From NCBI GenBank assembly GCA_003647715.1, contig QMNJ01000001.1, positions 1 to 38,671 of the forward strand: a DNA stretch of 38,671 nt. The letters are read 5' to 3'. Under the pieces are notes generated by a model. That model saw only the letters and a program-made list of their open reading frames with translations, made no database searches and was not told where the DNA came from. How positions within the stretch are numbered: the first letter of the stretch is position 1; each line of letters opens with the position of its first letter. Both the position numbers and the translations under genes were made by a program. Positions 15,669 to 37,357 of this stretch are shown one piece after another. The DNA comes from Candidatus Coatesbacteria bacterium. GTDB lineage: Bacteria > RBG-13-66-14 > B26-G2.

Positions 15669-16826
15669 ATGGCTGAGGAAAAGAAACTGTATCTGAGAGT
15701 AAAAGGTGTTGAGCACGGACCCTTCACTGTGGAAGAGGTAAAGACCTGGATTGAGGGTGGGAAGTTCAAGCCAACCGACTATATAAGAATGGAGGGGATG
15801 AAGCACTGGGTGATGGCTAAGAACCTGGTTCACCTCAAGGAATATTTTGATGCCAAGAAGGAGGAGGATAGAAAGGGAGCATTTGCTTCATGGCTGGGAC
15901 AGGTTAGAGAAGGTAAGCCACCTATTGTGTTGACTCCCACTGGTGTAACGGAGGAGCATACAAGGATTGCAGAGGCAAGGAAGCAACTTGAAGAGGATGC
16001 GAAGCGACTTGAAGAGAGAGAAGCGGAGTTAAGGGAGCAGATAGAGAGGGAGTTAACCAAGAAGCAGGAGGAGGAGTTTGAGAGATTGCGTAAGGAGAGA
16101 GAGCGTCTTGAGGAACATCGGATGGAGTTAGAAGAAGCCGAGATAGAGATAAAACAGATGGAGAAGACGGTGAGGAGGAGAAGGAGAATACCCTTGATAA
16201 TAGCAGGGGCTGTTATAGTTGCAGTTATTGCGGTCAGCACTCCAATTGTTATTAATTACTACAAGAGCACGAAGGAGTTGCAGGAGGCAATCAATAGAAT
16301 AGACATAATTGACAATGAGATTAAGAACCTGATGGCTAAATTAGAAGATGCAGAGACAACGATGGAGAGAGAAGCAATAATGGAGAAGATAGAGGAGTTG
16401 AAGAAGGAGAGGGAGGAATTGGTCAAAGAGGTTGAGAAGAAAGGCGGAGGGGAACCAATTGAAAATATTGAGACCACCCTCGGTAGTGTCAGTATTACAG
16501 GTCCGTTAAGCATTATCGGTCCAGGGTCTGATGACCCATCAAGGAGCTCTTCTACGGTGGATTCCATCATCAGAGGTAGAATGGGTGCAATCAATAGTGT
16601 TTACAACCGAGAATTAAGGAGCAATCCATCGCTAGAGGGAAAGGTAGTAGTATCGTTTACTGTATCCTCTGATGGGACGGTTACCCGAGCTAATGTAATA
16701 TCCTCCACACTCAGCAACTCCAAACTTGAGAATGCAATTGTCTCTAATATTATGCTCGCTAGATTCCCAAGCACCAGCAGTGGTGATATTACGGTTACTT
16801 ATCCGTTTACCTTTGAAACAAAATAA
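15669..16826 (+). CDS. GYF_2 domain / coiled-coil / single TM / AgmX-PglI-type (TonB_C-like) C-terminal domain protein (GltJ-like architecture)
   Basis: N-terminus GPFTVEEVKTWIEGGKFKPTDYIRMEGMKHWVMAKNL has the GYF_2 pattern. An E/K/R-rich coiled coil follows, then RRRRR and the TM IPLIIAGAVIVAVIAVSTPIVINYY (aa 174-197). The C-terminus GRMGAINSVYNRELRSNPSLEGKVVVSFTVSSDGTVTRANVISSTLSNSKLENAIVSNIMLARFPSTSSGDITVTYPFTF fits the AgmX/PglI / TonB_C pattern. AAGGA SD present. The start lies 10 nt after the giant gene stop. Confidence 0.7.
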   Translation: MAEEKKLYLRVKGVEHGPFTVEEVKTWIEGGKFKPTDYIRMEGMKHWVMAKNLVHLKEYFDAKKEEDRKGAFASWLGQVREGKPPIVLTPTGVTEEHTRIAEARKQLEEDAKRLEEREAELREQIERELTKKQEEEFERLRKERERLEEHRMELEEAEIEIKQMEKTVRRRRRIPLIIAGAVIVAVIAVSTPIVINYYKSTKELQEAINRIDIIDNEIKNLMAKLEDAETTMEREAIMEKIEELKKEREELVKEVEKKGGGEPIENIETTLGSVSITGPLSIIGPGSDDPSRSSSTVDSIIRGRMGAINSVYNRELRSNPSLEGKVVVSFTVSSDGTVTRANVISSTLSNSKLENAIVSNIMLARFPSTSSGDITVTYPFTFETK

Positions 16827-20593: not shown

Positions 20594-22230
20594 TCCGTTA
20601 TATATATCAATACCTCTGGACCCCTGGTTATTTTACCATCAGGTGAGAAATTTTTTATGAGTTTGTATTTCTCTTTGAGTATTCGGTGGTATTCATTCTC
20701 ACAGGGATATGTCTCCACGCCATAGTCAAGGCATTGGTCAATATAGAATTCTTTATCCCCAAAGACAGAGGTAATAACATATTTGATGTTATTACCTTCA
20801 ATAAATGATACAACATCTTTTATCGCCATGGATACCAGATAAAGGTTGTATTTCCTTCTGTTTTTTATCTCTTTTGACACGCTTATTAATATTCTAAACC
20901 TGATATTGCCCCGCCCCCAGATTGATAGTCGCTCTGCTGATTCAGGGTTCGGAATGAGTTGTGGTGATTCCACATCCGGTATCACCCGGTCAATGAGGAT
21001 GGCAGAATTTTCAGTAAGGTTCTCTTCTATCCACTGTCGTGCCATCTCTCTGGTGTCTGTCATCGCTGATTTTCTAACAGCAATGAAAGTGGGTATTGCA
21101 ATAAATAACCCAATAAAAGATATGAATAAAATTCCAATGTATTTATTCTTCCTCTTTATTTTGGAGAATAAATATTGAAGACCATTTCCTCCGATAATAG
21201 CTATGGGTGGGAGGGAAACAATAAGGTAGTGAGGTGGCACATACCTTCCAACTATGATTGCTATATTAAGTAATACTAATAGTATCAGAGGAATGAGTTT
21301 TCTTTCTCTGGATGCCATCATAAAGCCGAGAAGGGCAAATGGTATTATCACCGGGGTAATCAATCTTGGTGAGATGTTCACTGCAAACCAGCGGAGTGAG
21401 CTCATCAACTGGAATCCCACCTCTCTTGCTCTATCTATCTGTGTTTTTATATCCCCAATAGCGCTGTGATGGTCAATCACAATGAATGGTGAGAATATAA
21501 GGAACGATAGTGTAGTAATTACAACAAACATCAATGATAACCTGATATGAGATTTTACATCTGTTTTCTGTATGAAAATATATGCTATTACTGCGGGTAT
21601 TATCAGGAGGGCGTTGTATTTTGTTGATATAGCAGTGCCTGTGAAGATTGCTGATAGGATGATATTTTGTTTTGACAGATTATGGTTTCGGTAGATAAAG
21701 AATAATGCCATTGAGGTGAAGAGCAGAAGATATGCCTCTGGCTTTGCAAGGTGTGAGTAGCGTATAAACAGCGGTGATGTTATGAGTATTACCGAGGCGA
21801 ATATAGCAGTAGTGCGATTTGCTATCCTTGAAGCCATCAGGTATATAAAGGGTATAGAAAGAGTAGAGAGTATTATGCTGAAAAGACGGGATGTAATATA
21901 TATAACGGTTGGATTCTCAAGGTAGAGGAGCATATAATCGTGTGTAGTTATCACAACATTCAAAACTTTTAGAACCACGAATAGAATTCCAAGAACTATG
22001 AAGAGCATATATACAGGTAGTTGTGCTGGCCAGGTGAAAAGGTGTGGATTGAAATCGCCGGTTCCACAGTGGAGGGCTCGCTCCACAATCTGGAATTCAT
22101 CGCTCACCGTTAAACTAGGAAGATTACCTTTCAAACCAGGTAATGTGAGCGCAAGAGATGAGATGATAAGAATCAGTATAATATATCTGTCTCTCAAGGT
22201 TCTCTCCTCATTCTGAGAACTGCATTGCAT
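20590..22230 (-). CDS. Polytopic GT-C glycosyltransferase, PMT_2/ArnT-like (second copy)
   Basis: 546 aa with many TM helices, an early acidic loop (TVSDEFQIVERALH) and a soluble C-terminal domain. An alternative TTG start at 22197 would form a TTGA overlap with the YfhO stop. Confidence 0.6.
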   Translation of the reverse strand: MQCSSQNEERTLRDRYIILILIISSLALTLPGLKGNLPSLTVSDEFQIVERALHCGTGDFNPHLFTWPAQLPVYMLFIVLGILFVVLKVLNVVITTHDYMLLYLENPTVIYITSRLFSIILSTLSIPFIYLMASRIANRTTAIFASVILITSPLFIRYSHLAKPEAYLLLFTSMALFFIYRNHNLSKQNIILSAIFTGTAISTKYNALLIIPAVIAYIFIQKTDVKSHIRLSLMFVVITTLSFLIFSPFIVIDHHSAIGDIKTQIDRAREVGFQLMSSLRWFAVNISPRLITPVIIPFALLGFMMASRERKLIPLILLVLLNIAIIVGRYVPPHYLIVSLPPIAIIGGNGLQYLFSKIKRKNKYIGILFISFIGLFIAIPTFIAVRKSAMTDTREMARQWIEENLTENSAILIDRVIPDVESPQLIPNPESAERLSIWGRGNIRFRILISVSKEIKNRRKYNLYLVSMAIKDVVSFIEGNNIKYVITSVFGDKEFYIDQCLDYGVETYPCENEYHRILKEKYKLIKNFSPDGKITRGPEVLIYITE

Positions 22231-27230: not shown

Positions 27231-27303
27231 GAGCCGCTAGCTCAGTAGGTAGAGCAACGGCCTTTTAAGCCGTGGGTCGAAGGTTCGATTCCTTCGCGGC
27301 TCA
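27231..27303 (+). tRNA. tRNA-Lys (anticodon UUU)
   Basis: A perfect 73-nt cloverleaf folded by hand: acceptor GAGCCGC/GCGGCTC, D arm GCTC-AGTAGGTA-GAGC, anticodon arm ACGGC-CTTTTAA-GCCGT, variable loop GGGTC, T arm GAAGG-TTCGATT-CCTTC, discriminator A. CCA is not encoded. A T7 run follows. Confidence 0.96.
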
Positions 27304-27340
27304 TTTTTTTATTTTACATTCATTTGCTTTATTTTATCCT

Positions 27341-29029
27341 ATGTCTATCCCTATGGCAAAGGCAGTCGTAATCTATGTAAGAGGACTTGGACAGAACACT
27401 CTGAAGTGGGCACTCAAAAGAAAATTTCTTCCATATCTGAAGTCAACTATCAATGAAGGAACCATAAAGAGGGTAAAGCCATTTCTCCCTCTTGACCATT
27501 GGGTGAATGAGCTCTCCTTTTTGAGAGGTGATAACCCCGGTGTTTTCTCATACTCTGGTTATACCGGCTGGAACTGGGAAGAGATGAGACCTGAGAACTC
27601 CGGAATAGAAAGAATTGAGAGATTGTTCTTCAGAGATATTTTCTCTAACAGGGTGTATCCCATAGGAGATTTCAAGCATAGAATATTTACCATAGGTTTT
27701 GAGCAGACATTTACACCGAACTCAATGGGGATTAACTCTGTATCTATACCTCCAGTCAGGTTTTTAAATGGCTATGGAGAACCGGTTCTCTTTACCACTC
27801 AGGAGGAAGCGCTTGAAGTAAACGACACCGGCAAGGTTGTTCCCATAAAGGTGGCGGAGAATAGGGTTAAAACCGTTCTGGAAGGTATGATGGGGACAAA
27901 GTCGCATCTCTTATTTGAGGTTAGAGAGAACAATTTAATTATGTTAAGAACTGATAGGGATGAGGTTGAGGTCAGAAAGGGTGAGGTATCAAGACCTATT
28001 GAGATATTATTCAAAAACAGGTTGTTAAGAAGAATTAGAGGTTACTACCAATTTTATATCAGGTCAATAACCCCACACCTTATTGTAAGCGCCAGCCCCC
28101 TCTCTGTCCAACTTGAATCGCAGTTTGTTAAGCATACCAGACCAGGTGGTGTGTTCGCTAAGCTGGAAAGGGATGCAGGACCCATTATTCTTAGAAATCC
28201 ATATGCTATTCTTAATTCATTCATCAGTGGGTGGATAGACAGGAGAGCAATGTTAAGGTTATTAGAGTGGGATATAATGGGCTTGACTCAAATATTGATG
28301 AGGTCTACTTCTTGGAATAGCGAAGATGTGATAGTTGTTATGTTTCCCCATCTGGATATCGCCTATCACTGTATGGGGGGGGATGGTATATTATGGGCTG
28401 TTAGGGAGTTGGACTGGATTATTGGGTGGTTAAACCATATCTATGGAATAAGACCATTTGTGGTGGGAGATTTTTCTATGTCTAGGGTTAGGAAAGTGGT
28501 TGACCTTAACAGATATTTTTTGTCCCGTGGTATTATCAATCTAAAGAATATAGATAGAGTTCCTTATTCTGGCATTCATAATTTCTGGGATGATGTTGAT
28601 TGGGATAACACAATTGCGTTCTCACTTGGTGGTGGTAGGGTTTTCGTAAATAGGAAGAATTCTCAATTTAAAGATGGTGCAATAAAGAGAGAGATGGAGG
28701 ATAAGATTATTAGTGTAGTTAATGGATTGAATAGAATCTATGGAGGAGGGGTGAAGAGGGTAGTGAGAAAGTATGAGATATATTCAGGGGAACTCTTTCA
28801 CGAGATGCCAGATTTACTGGTATGCTTTGGTGGTGGTCTATTTAATGGTTATATGGATTTCACCGATTTGAATAACAGAATATTCAATGAGAAAGATGCA
28901 GTACAGTATGAACACTTATCGCAGGATAATGAGAGAAATGATGGTGTAATGCTCTCACCTGTGAAGACATCTAAGGATGCTATTTCAATAGATAGAGTAA
29001 TGGAAGATATAATGTCATTATTGGAATAA
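27341..29029 (+). CDS. Alkaline-phosphatase-superfamily (type I phosphodiesterase/nucleotide pyrophosphatase-like) protein, probably catalytically inactive
   Basis: Colinear by eye with the roughly 500-aa bacterial/archaeal AlkP-family proteins. VVIYVRGLGQNTLKWALKRKFLPYLKSTINEG matches ViviGlDG....l...g.lPnLk.l...G. VDWDNTIAFSLGGGRVFVNRK, VVRKYEIYSGELFHEMPDLLV and the C-terminal NDGVMLS...ISIDRVMEDIMSLL also fit. Start moved to the ATG at 27341, because the track ORF starts at a GTG inside the tRNA. No obvious SD. Confidence 0.45.
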   Translation: MSIPMAKAVVIYVRGLGQNTLKWALKRKFLPYLKSTINEGTIKRVKPFLPLDHWVNELSFLRGDNPGVFSYSGYTGWNWEEMRPENSGIERIERLFFRDIFSNRVYPIGDFKHRIFTIGFEQTFTPNSMGINSVSIPPVRFLNGYGEPVLFTTQEEALEVNDTGKVVPIKVAENRVKTVLEGMMGTKSHLLFEVRENNLIMLRTDRDEVEVRKGEVSRPIEILFKNRLLRRIRGYYQFYIRSITPHLIVSASPLSVQLESQFVKHTRPGGVFAKLERDAGPIILRNPYAILNSFISGWIDRRAMLRLLEWDIMGLTQILMRSTSWNSEDVIVVMFPHLDIAYHCMGGDGILWAVRELDWIIGWLNHIYGIRPFVVGDFSMSRVRKVVDLNRYFLSRGIINLKNIDRVPYSGIHNFWDDVDWDNTIAFSLGGGRVFVNRKNSQFKDGAIKREMEDKIISVVNGLNRIYGGGVKRVVRKYEIYSGELFHEMPDLLVCFGGGLFNGYMDFTDLNNRIFNEKDAVQYEHLSQDNERNDGVMLSPVKTSKDAISIDRVMEDIMSLLE

Positions 29030-29135: not shown

Positions 29136-29164
29136 TTGACTTAATATAAAAATGCATTTAGAAT
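29136..29164 (+). promoter_or_regulatory. Sigma-70-type promoter for the TPR-Roadblock-efp-acc operon
   Basis: TTGACT (29136-29141), a 17-nt spacer, then TAGAAT (29159-29164). AGAGGT SD at 29191-29196 lies 8 nt before the TTG start at 29205. Confidence 0.6.
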
Positions 29165-29204: not shown

Positions 29205-30281
29205 TTGACTGAAAGAGATGAAAAAATCCTTAAGATGGTAGAGTTCTATAGAGGTCTTTTGATGGAAGACCCCACTCTACCTATCTTTGTCAAACTTGCA
29301 GGTGCATTACTTGATTTGAATAGAGTTAATGAAGCAAAGGAGGTAGTGAAAGGGGGTATTGAGCACAACCAAAAACTCCCGGAGGGTTATATATTGCTTT
29401 CAAGAATTCAGAGGATACAGGGTGAACTTAAGAATGCCAGTGAGAGTATAAATCGGGCTCTTCAATTAGACCCCTTTAATGTAGAAGCACTGATGGAAGA
29501 GGCGTTGTTGATGATGGATTTTGGGGATGCGGAGAAAGCGATAGCATCTCTGGAGAAGGCGCTTGATATTGAACCGGAGGATATGGAGATAAAGCGATTA
29601 AGAGCAACAATAAGAGCAAAGACCAGATTTGAGGAGATGAAGAAATATGTTGGCACCAGGAGGGGTCGGGAAATTCCAGAGGAAGAGTTGGTTGAGACCA
29701 CTGAAGAGGCAAAGACAGCCACACCATCACTTGCGGAGTTGTATCTCAAGCAGGGTTATCTGAAGAAGGCGAGAGATATATGCAAAACAATTCTAGCAAG
29801 ACAGCCAGAGAACGAAAGGGTTGTCAGGATTATGGCGCAGATAGAACAGATTGAATCTGCCAGAGATAAGATGCATGGTGAGTTTGAGTTTGAGATTGCT
29901 CCCGTTCCGACACTTACTTCGGGGGAGAGGGGTGAGTATGAGTTCAAATTAAGCGATGAGATTGACAAGGCATTCAGGGACCTTGAACTAGAAGATGTTG
30001 TCATTGAGGAACCTATACCTCCCGATAGGTTTATTGGATTTGATTTTGACCAGTTTTATATCAGGGAGGGGGAAGAGGAGGGTAAACCACCCCCTTTTGA
30101 GGGGCGAGTAGAACTTATGGGACCTGGAGCAGTAAAGCCAGAGTCCCACCTTGGGAAGAAAGAATTGGCAGGTGCGCCGGAGCTTGAATTGCCTGAGAGT
30201 ATTGATATATCAGACCTTGACGAAGAGGTGGATGATATATCAAAATTCCAGGATTGGCTTGATAAGTTGATTTCAGAGTAG
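29205..30281 (+). CDS. TPR-repeat protein with an acidic C-terminal tail
   Basis: TPR-like helices (EAKEVVKGGIEHNQKLPEGYILLSRIQRIQGELKNASESINRALQLDPFNVEAL; TPSLAELYLKQGYLKKARDICKTILARQPEN). The C-terminal third is E/D/P-rich and low in complexity. TTG start with a good SD. Confidence 0.7.
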   Translation: MTERDEKILKMVEFYRGLLMEDPTLPIFVKLAGALLDLNRVNEAKEVVKGGIEHNQKLPEGYILLSRIQRIQGELKNASESINRALQLDPFNVEALMEEALLMMDFGDAEKAIASLEKALDIEPEDMEIKRLRATIRAKTRFEEMKKYVGTRRGREIPEEELVETTEEAKTATPSLAELYLKQGYLKKARDICKTILARQPENERVVRIMAQIEQIESARDKMHGEFEFEIAPVPTLTSGERGEYEFKLSDEIDKAFRDLELEDVVIEEPIPPDRFIGFDFDQFYIREGEEEGKPPPFEGRVELMGPGAVKPESHLGKKELAGAPELELPESIDISDLDEEVDDISKFQDWLDKLISE

Positions 30282-30287
30282 GTGTAT

Positions 30288-30644
30288 ATGGATTTCAGAG
30301 GGATACTGCTTGAGATGATACATAATGTAGAGGGTTCAATAGCATCAAGTTTTTGTGGAATTGATGGTATAGGAGTTGAGACAGTAGTTCTGGATAAAGA
30401 TATAGATGCAAATGAAGCTGAAGTAGAGATTTCAACAATGTTGAAGGTTATTGGAGAGATAGCTAATAATCTGCAAGCGGGAAATATCAGGTCGTTCATA
30501 TTTGAAGCAGAGAAATTCAATGGTTTATTGGAGAAATGCGGTAATGACTACTTTATATGTATATTGTTGAAGCCAGAATCAAATATTGGTAAGGCAAGAT
30601 ATGTATTGAGGAAATACGCAAAGATGATAGAGAAAGAGATATAG
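30288..30644 (+). CDS. Roadblock/LC7 (MglB-like) domain protein
   Basis: VEGSIASSFCGIDGIGVETV and YFICILLKPESNIGKARYVLRKYAKMIE fit the Robl_LC7 pattern. ATG at 30288 with AGGTG just upstream. An alternative GTG at 30282 lies immediately after the TPR stop. Confidence 0.7.
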   Translation: MDFRGILLEMIHNVEGSIASSFCGIDGIGVETVVLDKDIDANEAEVEISTMLKVIGEIANNLQAGNIRSFIFEAEKFNGLLEKCGNDYFICILLKPESNIGKARYVLRKYAKMIEKEI

Positions 30645-30682
30645 TTTCTTAAAACCGGATGGTGTATTCTTAGAAATGAATT

Positions 30683-31033
30683 ATGGTGTTGAATGAGATA
30701 TTAGTCAAGTTGGTAGAAGAGGGACCCTTGAAGAAAGTTATTTTGGTTGACTATGATGGCTTTCTCATAGAGAAGGTAGGTGTTGAGGATAAAGAAGATG
30801 ATTTAGTAGCAGCAATAGTGAGAGACCTTCTAGAAAAGATTAAGAAAATAACCAGGTCATCATCTAATTCATTACCAATACAAGGTATATTTGAGACCAC
30901 CTCTGGATTGGTTGCCTTCTCTTTCTTCCCAAACAATCTGGCTTTATTTGGTGTATCAAAGGATGGTGTTAAGATAAGGGATGTGTGGAACTCACTATCA
31001 AAGATGTATAAAACAATAGCAGAGGCATTGTGA
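30683..31033 (+). CDS. Roadblock/LC7 (MglB-like) domain protein, second copy
   Basis: LKKVILVDYDGFLIEKVG, an internal helix DLVAAIVRDLLEKIKKI and NLALFGVSKDGVKIRDVWNSLSKMYKTI fit the Robl_LC7 pattern. Confidence 0.65.
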   Translation: MVLNEILVKLVEEGPLKKVILVDYDGFLIEKVGVEDKEDDLVAAIVRDLLEKIKKITRSSSNSLPIQGIFETTSGLVAFSFFPNNLALFGVSKDGVKIRDVWNSLSKMYKTIAEAL

Positions 31034-31045
31034 TTCAAGGATTAT

Positions 31046-31612
31046 ATGATTTCTTCAAATGATATACGGTCAGGAATGGTTATTGAGCTGAATGGAACTC
31101 TGTTTGAAGTGGTATTCGCAGAGCATTGCAAGCCGGGTAAGGGTTCTGCATTTGTGAGAACACAGTTGAGGAATCTTGACACGGGTGCAATAATTGACCA
31201 TAAGTTCAGAGCCGGTGAGAAGTTGGAACTGGTCAAACTGGAGGAAAGAAGAGCACAATTTCTATATAGTGAAGGAGAGAACTACTATTTTATGGATGAA
31301 GAGACATTTGAGCAGGTATTGGTAAAGGTAAATCAGCTGGGAGATGGCATCAAATTCTTAAGCACTGATGCAGTATTTATAATAGTATATAGAGATAAAA
31401 CCCCTTTGATGGCTAAACCGCCAATATTCATAAATCTCAGGGTTGAAAAGGCAGAACCAGGCGTTAAAGGTGATACACAATCAGGTGCAACAAAACCAGT
31501 TGTTATGGAGACCGGCTATACTTTGCAGGTTCCTTTATTTATTGAAGAGGGTGACATACTGAAGATAGACACAAGGACAGGGGAATATGTAGAAAGGGTT
31601 AAGGATAGTTGA
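31046..31612 (+). CDS. efp: Translation elongation factor P
   Basis: MISSNDIRSGMVIELNGTLFEVVFAEHCKPGKGSAFVRTQLRNL, with the conserved KPGKG loop. 188 aa. Confidence 0.97.
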   Translation: MISSNDIRSGMVIELNGTLFEVVFAEHCKPGKGSAFVRTQLRNLDTGAIIDHKFRAGEKLELVKLEERRAQFLYSEGENYYFMDEETFEQVLVKVNQLGDGIKFLSTDAVFIIVYRDKTPLMAKPPIFINLRVEKAEPGVKGDTQSGATKPVVMETGYTLQVPLFIEEGDILKIDTRTGEYVERVKDS

Positions 31613-31641: not shown

Positions 31642-32163
31642 GTGAACATAAAAAAGATAAAGGAATTGATGGATAAGTTGGAACAGACAGACCTTGCTGA
31701 GATTGAAATATCAGGTATATTCAGCAAGGTTGTGATAAGAAAAACTACATCCGGCGCTGTTACCTCTTTCTCTACATTCCAACCTGTTTATCAACCTCCT
31801 TCCTTGCCACAGGGGGAGCAACAGGACTTAGCCAGTGGAGTTTCAAAGCAGGTGCTGGAGAAAAATTTGACAGAGCCGACCATAGAAGTTGAAAAGGCAA
31901 AAGAAGAGGAGAAGGTGGAGAATATCGCTCATATAACTTCACCTATGGTAGGCACCTTTTATCGTGCTCCTGCTCCAGGTGCAGAACCATATGTAAAAGA
32001 AGGCGATAGAGTTACAAAAGGAACTATCGTATGTATCATTGAGGCAATGAAATTGATGAACGAGATTGAGAGCGAACAAAACGGAATAATAAAAGAGATA
32101 CATGTGGAGAACGCAAAGCCGGTTGAATATGGTCAGATTCTATTTACAATTCAGCTAGATTAA
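31642..32163 (+). CDS. accB: Acetyl-CoA carboxylase biotin carboxyl carrier protein
   Basis: [21 protein letters not shown] and the biotinyl-lysine motif [16 protein letters not shown] start with AAGGAG SD 7 nt upstream. Confidence 0.95.
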
Positions 32164-32200: not shown

Positions 32201-33847
32201 TTGAATATTGACATGTTCGGACTGCTTACCAGAGCATTGTTGGTTCTTGTCCTGCTATTTGGTGTTCTATTCGCAGTGGTAATGGCACTTGGTTACTACT
32301 TAGAGTGGAGCACTATGACCATTGTCTTAATTACTGTTGGAATTGTTGCCCTTCAGTATCTTCTTGGACCTTTCATTATACAGACCGTATATAGAATAAG
32401 ATGGATTAATTTGGATGAGTTGCCGATGGAGGTGAGGAATTTTATCGTATCATCTTGCCAGAAAGATAGAATAAAACTACCCAGAATCGGTATAATTGAT
32501 GATGGCAATCCCAATGCCTTCACCTTCGGTCATTATCCATCCAATGCGAGATTAGTTTTGACCAGAGGTCTGCTTGAAAGATTAAATACCGATGAGGTCA
32601 ATGCAGTTGTGGGACATGAATTGGGTCACATCGTCCATTGGGATTTTGTGGTGATGACCCTGGCGTCAGTGGTTCCACTCTTCTTCTACATCATATTCAT
32701 AACGATGTTATGGTCTAGAGGTGGAAACAGGAGAAGTCGTGGAGGGACTATAATTGTGGGGCTTGCATCTTTTCTTCTTTATATTATAACTCAATATGTT
32801 GTGCTTCTGCTCTCAAGGATTAGAGAATATTATGCCGATGAACACTCGGCAGAGTTGACCCAGAATCCCAACCTGCTCGCCTCATCACTGGTCAAGATAG
32901 CATATGGTCTGGCTGAGAAAAAACGGGAGACCGAGGAGAGTGTTATTTTCAGCAGAAAATTAAATGCTATAAAGTCGTTAGGTATATTTGACCCTTCAAG
33001 TGCAAGGAACCTCGCAGTTGCCAGTGCAGGCACAGAAGGTTTTACACTGGAGAATATGGGGAATGCAATGAAGTGGGACCTGTGCAATCCCTGGGCTTCT
33101 ATGTTTGAATTGAGGTCAACTCACCCACTTCCAGCGAAGAGAATAAAGCGACTTGGGAATATGTCAAAGAGAATGGGCAAAGCGCCATTGTATGACTTTG
33201 TTACACAGAAGCAGGAGTCATTCTTTGGCGAATTTATGGTTGATGTAATGGTAAAGTATGCACCCTTTATAACATTCGTCATTATATTCATCGCATCCGT
33301 TATCTTTATCCCCTATTACTATGTAATAGACACAATCCCCCTTATCGCATTCTCTCTCGGTAATGCTCTTGCGGTAGCGATGATATTCTCCCTGCTGAAG
33401 ACGAGATTCAAATATCCAGTGCGTGGTTTCCCTGAGAGGAAGATAGAAGACCTTCTCGGTGAGGTCAAGGTCTCGGGAATGAGGCCGGTTCCTGCAACAT
33501 TGAAGGGAGAGATTATTGGAAGGGGTATTCCAGGTCTGTTCTTAAGCGAGGATATGGTTCTTGAGGACGAGACCGGTTTTATAGTAATAGATTACAAACA
33601 GCCATTGTCTATTGCCAATATGCTCTTTGGTCTGGTTGTCACTGAGAGGATGATTGGAAGGAGTGTAGTTGCTGAGGGCTGGTATAGGCGTGCACCTACT
33701 CCTCACCTTGAGATGTATCACCTCAGGTCCGATGGCGATGTGTGGAAAGGATACACTCGTATGGTAAGGATTATCCTTGCTATTATTGGTTTGATTACTG
33801 GTATAGCAATATCGGGTTATATATTTATCCATATGAATGTTTTCTAA
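32201..33847 (+). CDS. M48-family (HtpX-like) zinc metalloprotease with a long C-terminal membrane plus beta-rich extension
   Basis: [10 protein letters not shown] zinc motif, downstream [11 protein letters not shown]-terminal TM pair, additional TM helices around aa 330-400 and a terminal TM. The start is either the TTG at 32201 or the ATG at 32213. Confidence 0.85.
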
Positions 33848-33864
33848 ATGATACATTTGGCAGG

Positions 33865-35241
33865 ATGATGTTTGAGAAGATATTAATAGCAAATAGAGGG
33901 GAGATTGCAGTAAGGATTATCAGGGCTGCAAGGGAGATGGGAATAAAGACGGTGATTGCTTGTTCGGAGGCAGACAGGAATTCCCTCGCTTCACGACTTG
34001 CAGATGAGGTAATATGTATAGGTCCGCCTGAATCGGCTAAGTCATATCTCAATATACCCAGGATTATCAGTGCAGCAGAAATTACAGGCGTGGATGCTAT
34101 TCACCCTGGATATGGCTTCCTCGCCGAAAACTCCTACTTCGCAGAGGCGGTTGAGGCATCAAATATTGTGTTCATTGGTCCGCCGTATAGGGCAATAGGT
34201 CTTATGGGGGATAAGGCGTTCGCCAGAAGCACAATGCGTGAGCACAGAGTTCCGATACTACCGGGTAGCGATGGTGGTCTTACTGACCAGAAGACCGCTC
34301 TCAAGGTGGCTCACGATATTGGCTACCCCATTATGGTAAAAGCGGTGGCGGGTGGTGGTGGTAGAGGAATGAGGATTGTTCATAATGATGATACAATGAG
34401 GAAGGCGGTTGAGATGGCTTCATCAGAGGCGAATGTTGCATTCGGCAACCCTGAGATATATCTTGAGAAATACCTTATTGAGCCAAGACATATAGAGATA
34501 CAGGTCATTGCTGATAAGCACGGTAATACCGTCTATCTGGGTGAACGCGAGTGCTCAATTCAGAGAAGGCACCAGAAACTGCTTGAGGAGGCGCCGTCAA
34601 TCGCTATTGATGAGGAGACCAGAAAGAGGATGGGTGAGGCGGCAGTCAGAGCATGCAAGGCGGTTGGTTACTACAGCGCCGGAACGGTGGAATTCCTTTT
34701 AGACAAGGATGGCAATTTCTACTTTATGGAGATGAACACCAGAATTCAGGTTGAACATCCTGTTACCGAGATGATTACGGGTATTGACCTCATCAAGTCA
34801 CAGATACTTGTCGCTATGGGAGAGAAATTACCCTTTAAGCAGAAAGACATAAGCATAGACGGTCATGCCATAGAGTGTCGGATAAATGCTGAAGACCCCG
34901 AGAGGGGATTTGCCCCATCTCCTGGAACCATAAAAGGTCTCATACTCCCTGGAGGTCTGGGAGTGAGGGTTGATACCCATATCTATCAGGGCTATACCGT
35001 CCCACCATATTACGATTCGCTGGTGGCAAAGTTGATATGCTGGGGCAGGGACAGGGAAGAGGCGAGGATTAGGACTGCTCGTGCTCTTGATGAATTCGTG
35101 ATTGAGGGTATTAAGACCACCATTCCATTCCAGAAGCGTGTTGTGGTCTCTGACCTGTTTAAGTCGGGAGACCTTTCAACCTCATTTATTGAACGACTTG
35201 AAAAGAATGAAAAATCTATTGGGGTAGATAAATCAGAGTAA
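33865..35241 (+). CDS. accC: Acetyl-CoA carboxylase biotin carboxylase subunit
   Basis: [61 protein letters not shown]. The start is set at the ATG at 33865. The track ORF start (33742) would add 41 aa and overlap the M48 gene. Confidence 0.97.
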
Positions 35242-35266: not shown

Positions 35267-36004
35267 ATGAGGATTGATGTTACCTTCACTCCTGGTGAAT
35301 TAAAAGCATACCTTGCGAATTCTGATAGAAATCATAGGAGATTAATTGTAATTATTGATGTTCTGAGAGCCACCACAACAATAATCACAGCGTTGAAGAA
35401 TAAGGCGATATGGGTTCTACCTGTATTAGCACCTGAAGAAGCATTTGAGATGAAGAAGGTATATGGCGACGCAATCCTTGCCGGTGAGAGAGACGGTGAG
35501 AAGATTGATGGTTTTGACCTTGGGAATTCACCGTTTGAATTTACGGAGGAAGTAGTTGCAGGCAGGGGCATCATACAATCTACCACAAATGGAACGGTCA
35601 ACATCAGGTATGCTATGGGGTATGGAGAGGTGATAATCTGTTCATTCATCAACATCAACGCTGTAAGAAGGTTTTGCCTTGATTATAATGCGGATATACT
35701 TGTTGCATGTTCAGGAAGGTATAACATTATGTGTCTGGAGGATGCGGTGTGTGCTGGAATTTTAGTTGAGGGCATTATTGAGCAATCAGATTGTTACCGT
35801 TATGAGATGGATTCAGTTATAATATCAATGCACTTATATGATGAATGTAGGAATGAGATACTTGGTATGCTTAAGAAATCTCAGCATGGAAGGTATTTAA
35901 CCTCACTTGGGTATGGAAGGGACCTTGAGTTTTCAGCCAAGGTTGACAGCACAGATATTGTTCCGTATATTGCAGATGACAGAGTGGTAATAGGTTTACA
36001 ATGA
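35267..36004 (+). CDS. 2-phosphosulfolactate phosphatase (ComB) family protein
   Basis: IIDVLRATTTIITAL and LAGERDGEKIDGFDLGNSP are the ComB-family signature regions. AAAGGGGA SD present. Confidence 0.85.
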   Translation: MRIDVTFTPGELKAYLANSDRNHRRLIVIIDVLRATTTIITALKNKAIWVLPVLAPEEAFEMKKVYGDAILAGERDGEKIDGFDLGNSPFEFTEEVVAGRGIIQSTTNGTVNIRYAMGYGEVIICSFININAVRRFCLDYNADILVACSGRYNIMCLEDAVCAGILVEGIIEQSDCYRYEMDSVIISMHLYDECRNEILGMLKKSQHGRYLTSLGYGRDLEFSAKVDSTDIVPYIADDRVVIGLQ

Positions 36005-36013
36005 TGTTAATAT

Positions 36014-37357
36014 ATGGTTATGGATGATATTAAGAGTGATGAAAGAGATAGTTTAAAAAAGAGGGCTGATAATTACCTCAGAAGGGCGATAGAATACGAG
36101 AGGGATGGGTATGTAGAGATGGCGAGTTTGGAGTATGTCCACTATGCAGATATTTTATGGCAGATGGGTAATAAGGAAGAATCAATCAAATATTATGAGA
36201 CCGCTGACCGCCTTTCTCCATTGAGTTCTCATTTCAGAAATAACCTGGGAGATATGTATTACGACCTGGGGAAGAGGGAGCTGGCGGCGAGGGAGTATGC
36301 CAAGGTGGTGGGGCTTTATGCCGAACAGGGTCTTCTTGATTCAGCGATAAGATTATGCAGGTCGTTTTTAGAGAAACTACCTGGCAATATTACTCTTATG
36401 TATGAACTGGCAGAATTGTATATGAAATCAGAGAGAACTCAGAAAGCGGTTAATGAGTATCAGAGAATTATTGACGAGGAGGGCGAGGGTATCGCATTGG
36501 CACACGAACGGCTTGGAGATATCTATGCCAGGCGTGGTTCTACTAAGGAGGCGCTTCACAACTACCTCAAAGCGGCGAATGAGTATTTCAAGGAGAGAGA
36601 ATTATCAGAAGCGATAGAGCAGTATAGGAACATTCTGAAGTTGAAACCTGAGAGTGTCGCCGCAAGACAGCGACTGGTGGAGCTTCTGGCAATGAAGAAG
36701 GACAAGAAATCGCTGACGGAGGAGTTGCTTGCTCTCGCTGACATTCTGATGAAGCAAGGCAAGAAAGAGATGGCGTTATCCACCTACACAAAAGTGAGAG
36801 AGATTGAACCGTCTAATCTTCAAGCACAAAAGAGGTTGAGCGAGGCATTACGACTGGCAACGGTGGAGGAGGCAACGGGTGGACTGGAAATTGACGAGAG
36901 GATGAGTAATGAAGTGATGTCAAGTTTGGATTCCATAGTAAAGGAATTAGGGGGGACGGATACTGAAGAGGCGGAAGAGACCATAAAGGATGCAGAGACC
37001 CATTATAACCTTGGGACTGGGTATCTTGAGATGGATTTGTATGACGATGCGATAAGGGAATTGCAAATGGCGAGCAGGAATAAACGGTTGAGAGCAAAGG
37101 CGTGCAATATTCTGGGCTTGTGTTTTATGGAGAAAGGTGATGTGGAGATGGCAATAAGGGAGTATATACGGGGTTTAAAGGCGGTGGAGAATGAGTATGA
37201 AGAATTGGGTTTGAGGTATAATCTTGCGAGTGCCTATGAGTATGCTGGTGAGTTGAAAAAGGCACTAGACCAGCTTATAGATATATATGTAGTGGATGTG
37301 AACTATCTGGATGTGAAGGAGAAGATTGAATCAATAAAGAATAGATTATCTAAATAG
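36014..37357 (+). CDS. TPR-repeat protein
   Basis: 447 aa with repeated 34-aa TPR-like units (e.g. LGDMYYDLGKRELAAREYAKVVGLYAEQG; LGDIYARRGSTKEALHNYLKAANEY; YNLGTGYLEMDLYDDAIRELQMA). Confidence 0.75.
   Translation: MVMDDIKSDERDSLKKRADNYLRRAIEYERDGYVEMASLEYVHYADILWQMGNKEESIKYYETADRLSPLSSHFRNNLGDMYYDLGKRELAAREYAKVVGLYAEQGLLDSAIRLCRSFLEKLPGNITLMYELAELYMKSERTQKAVNEYQRIIDEEGEGIALAHERLGDIYARRGSTKEALHNYLKAANEYFKERELSEAIEQYRNILKLKPESVAARQRLVELLAMKKDKKSLTEELLALADILMKQGKKEMALSTYTKVREIEPSNLQAQKRLSEALRLATVEEATGGLEIDERMSNEVMSSLDSIVKELGGTDTEEAEETIKDAETHYNLGTGYLEMDLYDDAIRELQMASRNKRLRAKACNILGLCFMEKGDVEMAIREYIRGLKAVENEYEELGLRYNLASAYEYAGELKKALDQLIDIYVVDVNYLDVKEKIESIKNRLSK

Follow-up and report, generated by a model that had tools for sequence, protein, structure and literature searches.

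The 38.7-kb stretch of DNA analysed here (38,671 nucleotides, in the following the window) carries a cluster of nine genes on one strand, which begins with a TPR gene and two small open reading frames, ORF2 and ORF3, continues with efp and the two acc genes, and ends with a second TPR gene (Table 1). The three leading reading frames lie where the first-pass annotation had placed them, efp beginning exactly 12 nt past the end of ORF3 and the TPR gene ending 6 nt ahead of the ATG of ORF2. An alternative GTG start of ORF2 at position 30282 would give a protein of 120 instead of 118 amino acids; the ATG at 30288 was adopted, as it is used by the orthologues and by the gene caller. The first-pass annotation had proposed a synteny check, and in other metagenomic lineages the three genes are indeed kept in the same order with 48-71% identity; on account of this conservation, they are considered genuine genes rather than chance ORFs.

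The nine genes, with gaps of 6-38 nt, are predicted to be a single operon and are probably transcribed as such. The promoter-like sequence TTGACT-N17-TAGAAT described previously is present and agrees with the consensus in 10 of 12 positions, but such sites are not more frequent in the scanned region than in shuffled sequence (19 versus 16.9), and it is thus to be regarded as a consensus match only. The M48 peptidase gene inserted between accB and accC also occurs in the nearest lineages and in a further genome (G001), and is absent from the two accC-bearing loci of the f4 family (L104 and L113). As noted before, no gene for a small GTPase is located nearby: a P-loop scan revealed none in the window.

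Table 1 Features of the locus, with positions in the window
Feature	Position	Strand	Basis
Match to a sigma-70-like promoter (TTGACT-N17-TAGAAT), 41 nt ahead of the TPR gene	29136..29164	+	Consensus, 10/12 matches
TPR358 (TPR gene, TTG start, 358 aa)	29205..30281	+	Pfam TPR, AF2 model, orthologue alignment
mglC orthologue, ORF2 (118 aa)	30288..30644	+	Profile match to PDB 7ct3
Robl3, ORF3 (116 aa), Roadblock/LC7 fold, rare subfamily	30683..31033	+	Pfam PF03259, AF2, Foldseek
efp (elongation factor P)	31046..31612	+	NCBIfam TIGR00038, 228.7 bits
accB (biotin carboxyl carrier protein)	31642..32163	+	Pfam Biotin_lipoyl, 6.4e-25
Membrane M48 peptidase	32201..33847	+	Pfam Peptidase_M48, 8.3e-33
accC (biotin carboxylase)	33865..35241	+	Translation; Pfam matches of orthologues
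2-Phosphosulfolactate phosphatase (ComB) family protein	35267..36004	+	NCBIfam NF002054, 192.7 bits (cut-off of 330 not reached)
TPR447 (short SgmX-like TPR protein), last gene of the cluster	36014..37357	+	Top NCBIfam match SgmX; BLASTP; synteny

The two Roadblock proteins

MglA, MglB, MglC, and RomR constitute the best-studied front-rear polarity switch of bacteria, and knowledge of it stems almost entirely from one species. MglB, the GAP of MglA, is a protein of about 160 residues with a C-terminal extension and is encoded beside mglA; the contact between MglC and MglB of M. xanthus is disrupted by MglA-GTP. In another type of arrangement, the conservon, a Roadblock protein (CvnB) is combined with a kinase (CvnA), a DUF742 protein (CvnC), and a GTPase (CvnD).

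ORF2 has no match in Pfam, and a word-based homologue search found only the protein itself. A profile of its orthologues aligned with M. xanthus MglC (PDB 7ct3) at an E value of 1.5e-17, covering residues 1-117 and 1-119, respectively, and the two proteins share 35% identity over their full length. Judged by this homology, ORF2 is an orthologue of MglC and a member of the MglB_orphan1 subfamily of Roadblock proteins, the M. xanthus representative of which is MXAN_5770 (PDB 7ct3 and 7cy1). In M. xanthus, MglC connects the polar scaffold RomR with MglB and functions neither as GAP nor as GEF (PMC10329633). It is a homodimer, and the cleft that accommodates RomR spans the homodimer interface (PMC12719032; PMC10329633). 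The basic residues K104, R106, and R110 form the interface with RomR and the acidic patch of F25, D26, and I28 that with MglB, the contacts in the published MglC-MglB model being made by D26 and I28 (PMC10329633; PMC12719032). The RomR-binding residues correspond to K102, R104, and R108 of ORF2, which lie within the motif NIGKARYVLRK; among 17 aligned sequences, the first position is K or R in 16, the second is invariably R, and the third is R or K. D26 and I28 are invariant in the aligned MglC sequences, and at the position of F25, ORF2 has Ile and its relatives within the phylum have Val, Ala, Met, or Thr.

ORF3, designated Robl3, matches the Pfam family Robl_LC7 (PF03259) with 25.5 bits at a cut-off of 23. 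Its AF2 model (pLDDT 75.5) has the topology alpha-beta-beta-alpha-beta-beta-beta-alpha and in Foldseek resembled LAMTOR2, MglB, and an Asgard Roadblock protein with TM scores of 0.72-0.76 and a probability of 1.00. A word-based search yielded two relatives, and only eight clusters were present among 1.84 billion (1.84e9) representative proteins; the gene is always located directly behind the TPR gene or mglC. ORF3 is a real but rare and very divergent second Roadblock protein. Both small proteins are thus of the Roadblock type, as the first-pass annotation had stated, ORF3 according to Pfam and fold and ORF2 according to its full-length homology to MglC; the additional designation as MglB-like partners of the GAP/GEF type does not apply to ORF2, since MglC is a connector (PMC10329633). 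Their supposed paralogy holds at the superfamily level, where a comparison of broader profiles of the MglC and Robl3 families by hhalign gave a probability of 87% and an E value of 3.9e-6, but the two are not close: identity in this alignment is 18%, and neither BLASTP nor hhalign with three sequences detected any similarity. They are best described from these alignments as distant relatives.

Two other assignments of ORF3 were rejected. A small profile matched MglB only at an E value of 0.3, and the profile of the family did so at 5.5e-5; however, ORF3, at 116 residues, has no extension and is not encoded beside mglA, and the true MglB is encoded elsewhere. The best PDB match of the family profile was the conservon protein CvnB5 (3leq, 1.8e-8); however, ORF3 has the TPR gene, mglC, and efp as its neighbours, and neither a kinase nor a GTPase gene lies beside the TPR-Robl3 pair in the examined loci.

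MglA, MglB, and the TPR protein

The expectation that a GTPase is encoded elsewhere was borne out by a genome search for MglA-like GTPases, which located a canonical, Myxococcus-type MglB-MglA pair (G000:C4:20687-21768) on a contig other than that of the window. MglB (20687-21181) scored 151 bits against its M. xanthus counterpart and MglA (21184-21768) 299 bits; according to a P-loop scan, MglA is the sole small Ras-like GTPase of its genome. The MglB residues aligning with K14, R115, and K120, which make up a patch contacting MglC (PMC10329633), are conserved, so that the K/R/K patch is intact.

MglA was present in all 25 genomes surveyed in the phylum and Robl3 in 24 of them. A strong MglC match was obtained for each of the 15 genomes of the window's class, its gene preceding Robl3 by 13-21 nt in the same orientation; the TPR gene upstream of mglC was confirmed in the window, in the metagenome loci, and in the five loci fetched from this class. 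The TPR gene adjoins Robl3 also in all seven loci examined from the sister class, but without mglC as a neighbour, and a single genus gave no MglC match at all; in this class, the TPR-Robl3 pair is located beside the translation-related genes rsfS, rlmH, and argS. PilB/PilT-type ATPases are absent from the whole class to which the window's genome belongs.

The TPR repeats and the acidic tail ascribed to the first protein of the cluster are both present. TPR358 matches TPR_19 of Pfam (2e-17) and further TPR families and begins with a TPR domain (residues 1-145), to which another TPR-like unit is added (171-222). An acidic stretch of about 120 disordered residues (223-342) then leads to a C-terminal helix (343-357) with the motif F-x-x-W-L. 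In the AF2 model, pLDDT values exceed 90 for residues 10-140 and are below 40 for residues 223-333, and a helix is formed by residues 343-357. The segment from residue 216 to 358 has a pI of 4.2, with 41 acidic (D+E) versus 15 basic (K+R) residues. All 15 TPR proteins examined across the phylum carry an invariant F-x-x-W-L motif. A word-based search with the tail returned only itself, and searches of the M. xanthus, Thermodesulfovibrionales, and own genomes with an F-x-x-W-L tail profile yielded chance matches only (HemA and an LRR protein, E around 1).

RomR consists of a folded domain, a disordered region, and a C-terminal helix, in which W394 is essential for binding to MglC (PMC12719032). 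Homology of the TPR358 tail to the RomR C-terminus is not claimed, as the tail profile fails to find RomR in M. xanthus; the likeness is therefore architectural and not a demonstrable homology, and the N-terminus of TPR358 is a TPR domain rather than the receiver domain of RomR. The genome (92% complete) contains no RomR-type protein as judged by domain architecture rather than by a RomR profile; its three receiver-domain proteins are a REC-GGDEF protein, a single REC domain, and an NtrC-type activator, none of which resembles RomR in architecture. Since a RomR-type protein was not found, we hypothesise that TPR358, by means of its disordered acidic region and F-x-x-W-L helix, likely takes over the part of RomR in docking Roadblock proteins. 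As the tail is also kept in the sister class, where mglC is not adjacent, its primary partner may be Robl3 or another protein rather than MglC.

Gene order and the SgmX-like protein

SgmX is an effector of MglA-GTP with 14 TPRs, which licenses the formation of type IV pili. In a synteny comparison of 85 loci, most showed the order mglC-(efp)-accB-accC-TPR. Myxococcota such as M. xanthus have the gene order mglC-(efp)-accB-accC-sgmX, and the TPR protein encoded downstream of accC in M. xanthus is SgmX (1960 bits). The linkage to efp and accBC, which had been called odd, is thus a conserved arrangement. In other phyla, mglC occurs in the same gene string beside pilQ or aroKB, which points to an inherited gene order, and we infer that the linkage reflects this inheritance and no functional tie to translation. 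The literature searched contained no paper linking MglC to EF-P and did not mention the conserved order mglC-(efp)-accBC-sgmX.

The last protein of the cluster, TPR447, matched the SgmX family of NCBIfam (NF052243) at profile positions 893-1011 with 71.3 bits, far below the cut-off of 1800. By BLASTP, its residues 325-434 align with residues 880-993 of M. xanthus SgmX (32% identity, E 3e-12), and residues 105-276 also align with residues 16-206. The three C-terminal TPRs of SgmX bind MglA and the middle TPRs bind FrzS (PMC11580455).

Function of the locus and related systems

Taken as a whole, the locus can be read as a variant of a known polarity system with new partners, namely a TPR scaffold and Robl3. 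The earlier suggestion that it belongs to a polarity circuit is supported. We assign a probability of roughly 0.7 to the reading that TPR358, MglC, and Robl3 act as accessory components of an MglA/MglB polarity switch of the Myxococcus type; MglC and Robl3 most likely work together with the MglA and MglB encoded elsewhere in the genome. In the proposed mechanism, the acidic, Trp-bearing helix of TPR358 would dock on Robl3, on the MglC dimer at its conserved basic K/R/R cleft, or on the two together, and MglC would in turn bring in MglB, giving a stack of Roadblock dimers that could be broken by MglA-GTP. Type IV pili are not the expected output of the switch, given that PilB/PilT-type ATPases are missing throughout the class. 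A more specific version is put forward only tentatively: the three proteins might assemble in the manner of Ragulator, with two unlike Roadblock dimers stacked and held by the disordered, Trp-bearing tail of TPR358 as a scaffold in place of RomR, and might set MglA/MglB polarity without RomR or type IV pili, perhaps steering a GltJ-like adhesion machinery. A GltJ-like adhesion gene is encoded 13 kb upstream of the locus; a tie between the two is speculation.

MglC and Robl3 could instead form an obligate heterodimer like LAMTOR2/LAMTOR3, wrapped by the TPR tail as LAMTOR1 wraps Ragulator. Throughout the window's class, the two genes lie side by side with short spacing, the proteins share the Roadblock fold and are of nearly equal length, and one of the best structural matches of Robl3 is LAMTOR2, taken from heterodimeric complexes. 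Nevertheless, this arrangement is unlikely in view of the homodimeric M. xanthus MglC, with its RomR cleft across the homodimer interface (PMC12719032; PMC10329633), and of the sister class, in which Robl3 occurs without adjacent MglC and, in one genus, without any MglC match, so that it cannot depend on MglC everywhere. That same separation, together with the rank of CvnB5 ahead of MglB in the profile search, would fit an MglA-independent module of TPR358 and Robl3, conservon-like or another Roadblock pair, which merely lies beside mglC in one class. This we hold to be still less likely, as CvnA, CvnC, or CvnD genes do not accompany the pair in the loci examined, MglA/MglB are present in all surveyed genomes carrying it, MglA is the only small Ras-like GTPase in its own genome, and mglC directly precedes Robl3 in every one of the 15 genomes of the class.

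The operon-like spacing, with efp following Robl3 so closely, and the recurrence of translation-related genes beside the TPR-Robl3 pair of the sister class might indicate that the three proteins regulate or scaffold EF-P and acetyl-CoA carboxylase rather than polarity. Cross-phylum synteny speaks against this as the main reading and makes it highly improbable: M. xanthus shares the mglC-(efp)-accBC order, and its MglC has a demonstrated role in polarity and no known link to EF-P (PMC4719450; PMC10329633), the same string occurs with pilQ or aroKB in other phyla, and the literature searched contained no such link either.

As accessory parts of the MglA/MglB switch, the three proteins would belong to a natural variant in which MglA, MglB, and MglC are clearly orthologous to those of Myxococcus, a RomR-type scaffold was not found, TPR and second Roadblock genes are joined to mglC, and type IV pili, the usual output, are probably missing. 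If the TPR tail docks Roadblock proteins, the basic cleft of MglC would serve generally as a socket into which acidic Trp helices fit, and the evolutionary relationship that has been proposed for bacterial Roadblock stacks and the Ragulator of eukaryotes would gain support. The gene order mglC-(efp)-accBC-sgmX provides a practical marker for locating polarity genes in uncultured phyla.

With M. xanthus MglC, ORF2 shares its length, the K/R/R patch and D26/I28, the status of an orphan gene whose genome also encodes a group-1-type MglA and a coupled MglB, and a place ahead of efp-accB-accC and of a TPR gene of the SgmX type. It differs in the Ile that replaces F25, in the flanking TPR and second Roadblock genes, both missing from the M. 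xanthus locus, and in its Coatesbacteria host, in which no RomR-type protein was found and which, having no PilB/PilT-type ATPase, is unlikely to form type IV pili. TPR447 occupies the place of sgmX downstream of accC at the end of the cluster, and its C-terminal and N-terminal parts align with the corresponding parts of SgmX; however, it has 447 rather than about 1060 residues, does not match the middle third with the FrzS-binding TPRs, and comes from a class without PilB. TPR358 resembles RomR in its folded N-terminus, long disordered region, and short acidic C-terminal Trp helix, and differs in having a TPR instead of a receiver domain and a tail that is conserved also where MglC is not adjacent.

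Ragulator (LAMTOR) is built of stacked Roadblock dimers that are wrapped by the disordered LAMTOR1, with binding tuned by the Rag GTPases. The locus described here is bacterial, a sequence relationship beyond the fold is not detectable, and heterodimer and wrapping are hypothetical in its case. In both systems, however, two different Roadblock proteins are encoded with a partner bearing a long disordered region, LAMTOR2 is among the best structural matches of Robl3, and a small GTPase is thought to control the contacts between Roadblock dimers, a parallel that has already been drawn between Ragulator and MglC/MglB (PMC10329633).

Gene layout and identity of the two small proteins

All genes between 29205 and 37357, from the TPR gene to the second TPR gene, lie on a single strand with intergenic gaps of 6-38 nt, and no terminator-like sites were found between the genes of the cluster. 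The TPR protein, the two small ORFs and efp lie where the first-pass annotation had placed them (see table). The good promoter that it described is present as a consensus match, but such matches are no commoner here than in shuffled sequence. A 585-aa ORF at 27272-29029, without a Pfam or NCBIfam match, precedes the TPR gene across a 175-nt gap with a promoter-like site and is kept at this position in the nearest lineages, there with 559-566 aa. A 548-aa membrane M48 peptidase (32201-33847) splits accB from accC, an unusual break in this pair; it occurs in the nearest lineages and in genome G001 and is missing from two f4-family loci with accC (L104, L113).

Features of the locus, parts of the TPR protein in its AF2 model, and the MglB-MglA pair
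Feature	Position	Strand	Remarks
Promoter match	29136-29164	+	TTGACT-N17-TAGAAT, consensus match
TPR protein	29205-30281	+	TTG start, 358 aa
Confident TPR domain	aa 1-145 of TPR protein		AF2 model
Second TPR-like unit	aa 171-222 of TPR protein		AF2 model
Low-confidence, acidic region	aa 223-342 of TPR protein		AF2 model, about 120 residues
C-terminal helix	aa 343-357 of TPR protein		AF2 model, invariant Trp
ORF2	30282 (GTG) or 30288 (ATG) to 30644	+	ATG used by orthologues and public gene call, 118 aa
ORF3	30683-31033	+	116 aa
efp	31046-31612	+	12 nt 3' of ORF3
MglB, directly followed by MglA	G000:C4:20687-21768		164 aa and 194 aa, outside the window

ORF2 has no Pfam match, and a profile built from ORF2 and two of its orthologues matched Myxococcus xanthus MglC (PDB 7ct3) over its full length (E 1.5e-17; 35% identity between ORF2 and MglC). 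MglC carries two functional patches, K104/R106/R110, which bind the acidic C-terminal helix of the polar scaffold RomR, and F25/D26/I28, which bind MglB, the GAP of the GTPase MglA (PMC10329633, PMC12719032). The RomR-binding residues are all kept in ORF2 (K102/R104/R108), and the MglB-binding patch has Ile in place of F25 together with invariant D26 and I28. Judged by sequence, ORF2 is an MglC orthologue, an identity narrower than the one first proposed.

ORF3 exceeds the Pfam Robl_LC7 cut-off (25.5 versus 23 bits), in line with the suggested Roadblock assignment, and the match spans its N-terminal half. Its AF2 model (pLDDT 75.5) has the Roadblock topology alpha-beta-beta-alpha-beta-beta-beta-alpha and resembles LAMTOR2, an Asgard Roadblock protein and MglB at TM 0.72-0.76 (Foldseek). 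A profile search among 1.84 billion representative proteins recovered only eight clusters, the two traceable ones with the same neighbours; this protein, designated Robl3, is a new rare Roadblock subfamily. ORF2 and ORF3 had been regarded as paralogous, of which a distant kinship stands, as their family profiles align end to end (18% identity, hhalign probability 87%, E 3.9e-6); BLASTP gave no match between them, and close paralogues they are not. In the profile alignment an invariant Trp of Robl3 is aligned with MglC R104, so Robl3 would present a different surface at this site.

Conservation and linkage to efp and accBC

Two sediment-metagenome lineages keep the TPR-Robl-Robl-efp synteny, with the order unknown 559-566-aa protein, TPR, MglC, Robl3, efp, accB, M48 peptidase, accC, ComB-like and TPR; sequence identity is 68-71% (MglC), 61-63% (Robl3) and 48% (TPR protein). 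In a phylum survey of 25 species genomes, MglA was present in all (68-87% identity; in two pieces in one fragmented assembly), adjoining the MglB-like match in each case where one was listed, and Robl3 in 24. Each genome of the window's class (15 of 15) has a strong MglC match, 13-21 nt 5' of Robl3 on the same strand, with a TPR gene 5' of mglC in the five loci of this class that were inspected. In each of the seven sister-class loci examined, Robl3 directly adjoins or is overlapped by the TPR gene, and mglC does not intervene; MglC-like matches in this class are weak and located elsewhere in three of four genera and missing in the fourth. The TPR-Robl3 overlap in these loci (L105-L111) is a few nucleotides long; L105 and L107, both read completely, continue with a gene for an HD-domain protein and with rsfS, rlmH and argS in place of efp-accBC.

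Co-transcription with efp and accBC had been considered odd; the linkage reflects a conserved gene order, M. xanthus included. An MglC-alignment scan of GTDB genomes yielded 80 loci, mostly from Myxococcota, and gene order was classified for these and five metagenome loci: mglC-efp-accB-accC-TPR occurs in 43 of the 85 and mglC-accB-accC-TPR in 13. The M. xanthus TPR protein at that position is SgmX (NCBIfam 1960 bits, cut-off 1800). In other phyla mglC lies within the same housekeeping string: after pilQ in Acidobacteriota, after aroC-aroK-aroB in Thermodesulfobacteriota, and before aroQ-pepP-efp-accBC in a Thermodesulfovibrionales genome. Given this cross-phylum synteny, the efp/accBC linkage is an inherited gene order common to the model organism, and the locus heads a gene string shared with Myxococcus. 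In Acidobacteriota mglC directly follows pilQ (L084, L088), in M. xanthus one gene later (L014); these neighbours point to an ancestral position tied to the end of the pilMNOPQ cluster. A text search found no paper linking MglC and EF-P, and McLoon et al. mention neither efp nor the operon (PMC4719450).

The last gene of the cluster (36014-37357) stands after accC, where sgmX stands, in a lineage without PilB. The best NCBIfam match of its 447-aa product is SgmX, at 71 bits far under the cut-off; both ends of the protein align with SgmX, the C-terminus with residues 880-993 (32% identity, E 3e-12) and the N-terminal part with residues 16-206. Because MglA binding is assigned to the three C-terminal TPRs of SgmX (PMC11580455), the protein is a plausible candidate for a short MglA effector.

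The GTPase and the output of the switch

A P-loop scan of the 38.7-kb window found no small GTPase, as anticipated. The first-pass annotation had proposed that these Roadblock proteins regulate a GTPase "encoded elsewhere or absent"; this general idea was right, and the answer is elsewhere, since a search of the 1.62-Mb assembly (92% complete), of which the window is contig C1, revealed an MglB-MglA pair on another contig. This MglA matches M. xanthus MglA structures with 299 bits and contains the TVPGQ and NKRD motifs; MglB (151 bits against the M. xanthus protein) keeps the residues aligned with K14, R115 and K120, which contact MglC in M. xanthus (PMC10329633). Just 5' of the pair is a gene cluster for 2-oxoacid:ferredoxin oxidoreductase. 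Contig C110 encodes a third Roadblock/LC7 protein, an orphan (G000:C110:1646-2023; 125 aa, Pfam 48.8 bits) flanked by genes for a glycosyltransferase and secreted proteins.

The genome encodes only three receiver-domain proteins, a REC-GGDEF protein, a single REC and an NtrC-type activator, none with RomR architecture. PilB/PilT-type ATPases (PF00437) were found neither in this genome nor in any of the 15 of the window's class (two being single contigs); all 10 sister-class genomes, whose MglC-like matches are weak or lacking, have two or three each. With MglC in 15/15 and the ATPase in 0/15, the clear MglC orthologue is confined to the class without these ATPases, and type IV pili are an unlikely output of its switch. 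Across the 25 genomes the two distributions are opposite. As M. xanthus GltJ binds MglA-GTP (PMC11135422), the GltJ-like protein at 15669-16826 is by analogy a candidate output.

The TPR protein and a possible polarity complex

The TPR repeats of the TPR protein were confirmed by Pfam, and the acidic tail noted earlier takes in aa 223-342. At their C-termini, all 15 TPR proteins examined are acidic and share the invariant motif F-x-x-W-L. [quoted passage not shown] The modelled TPR protein has a RomR-like layout, a folded domain followed by a disordered region and a helix, with no demonstrable homology between its tail and RomR. In the Thermodesulfovibrionales genome (L011:3938-5408), a TPR gene overlaps the mglC start by 23 nt; its 378-aa product is acidic in the middle and has a different tail, LNSFLERI. 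By this overlap the TPR-mglC pairing extends to Nitrospirota.

We hypothesize that the TPR protein, MglC and Robl3 form a complex in which the TPR protein would serve as polar or scaffold partner, its tail docking on the basic cleft of MglC, on Robl3, or on both; MglC would then bridge to MglB, and MglA-GTP would dissolve the stack. The tail is kept even at loci lacking an adjacent mglC, so its main partner may be Robl3. The locus represents a variant of the known Myxococcus polarity system, in which an MglC orthologue, Robl3 and a TPR protein with the layout of RomR are encoded together.
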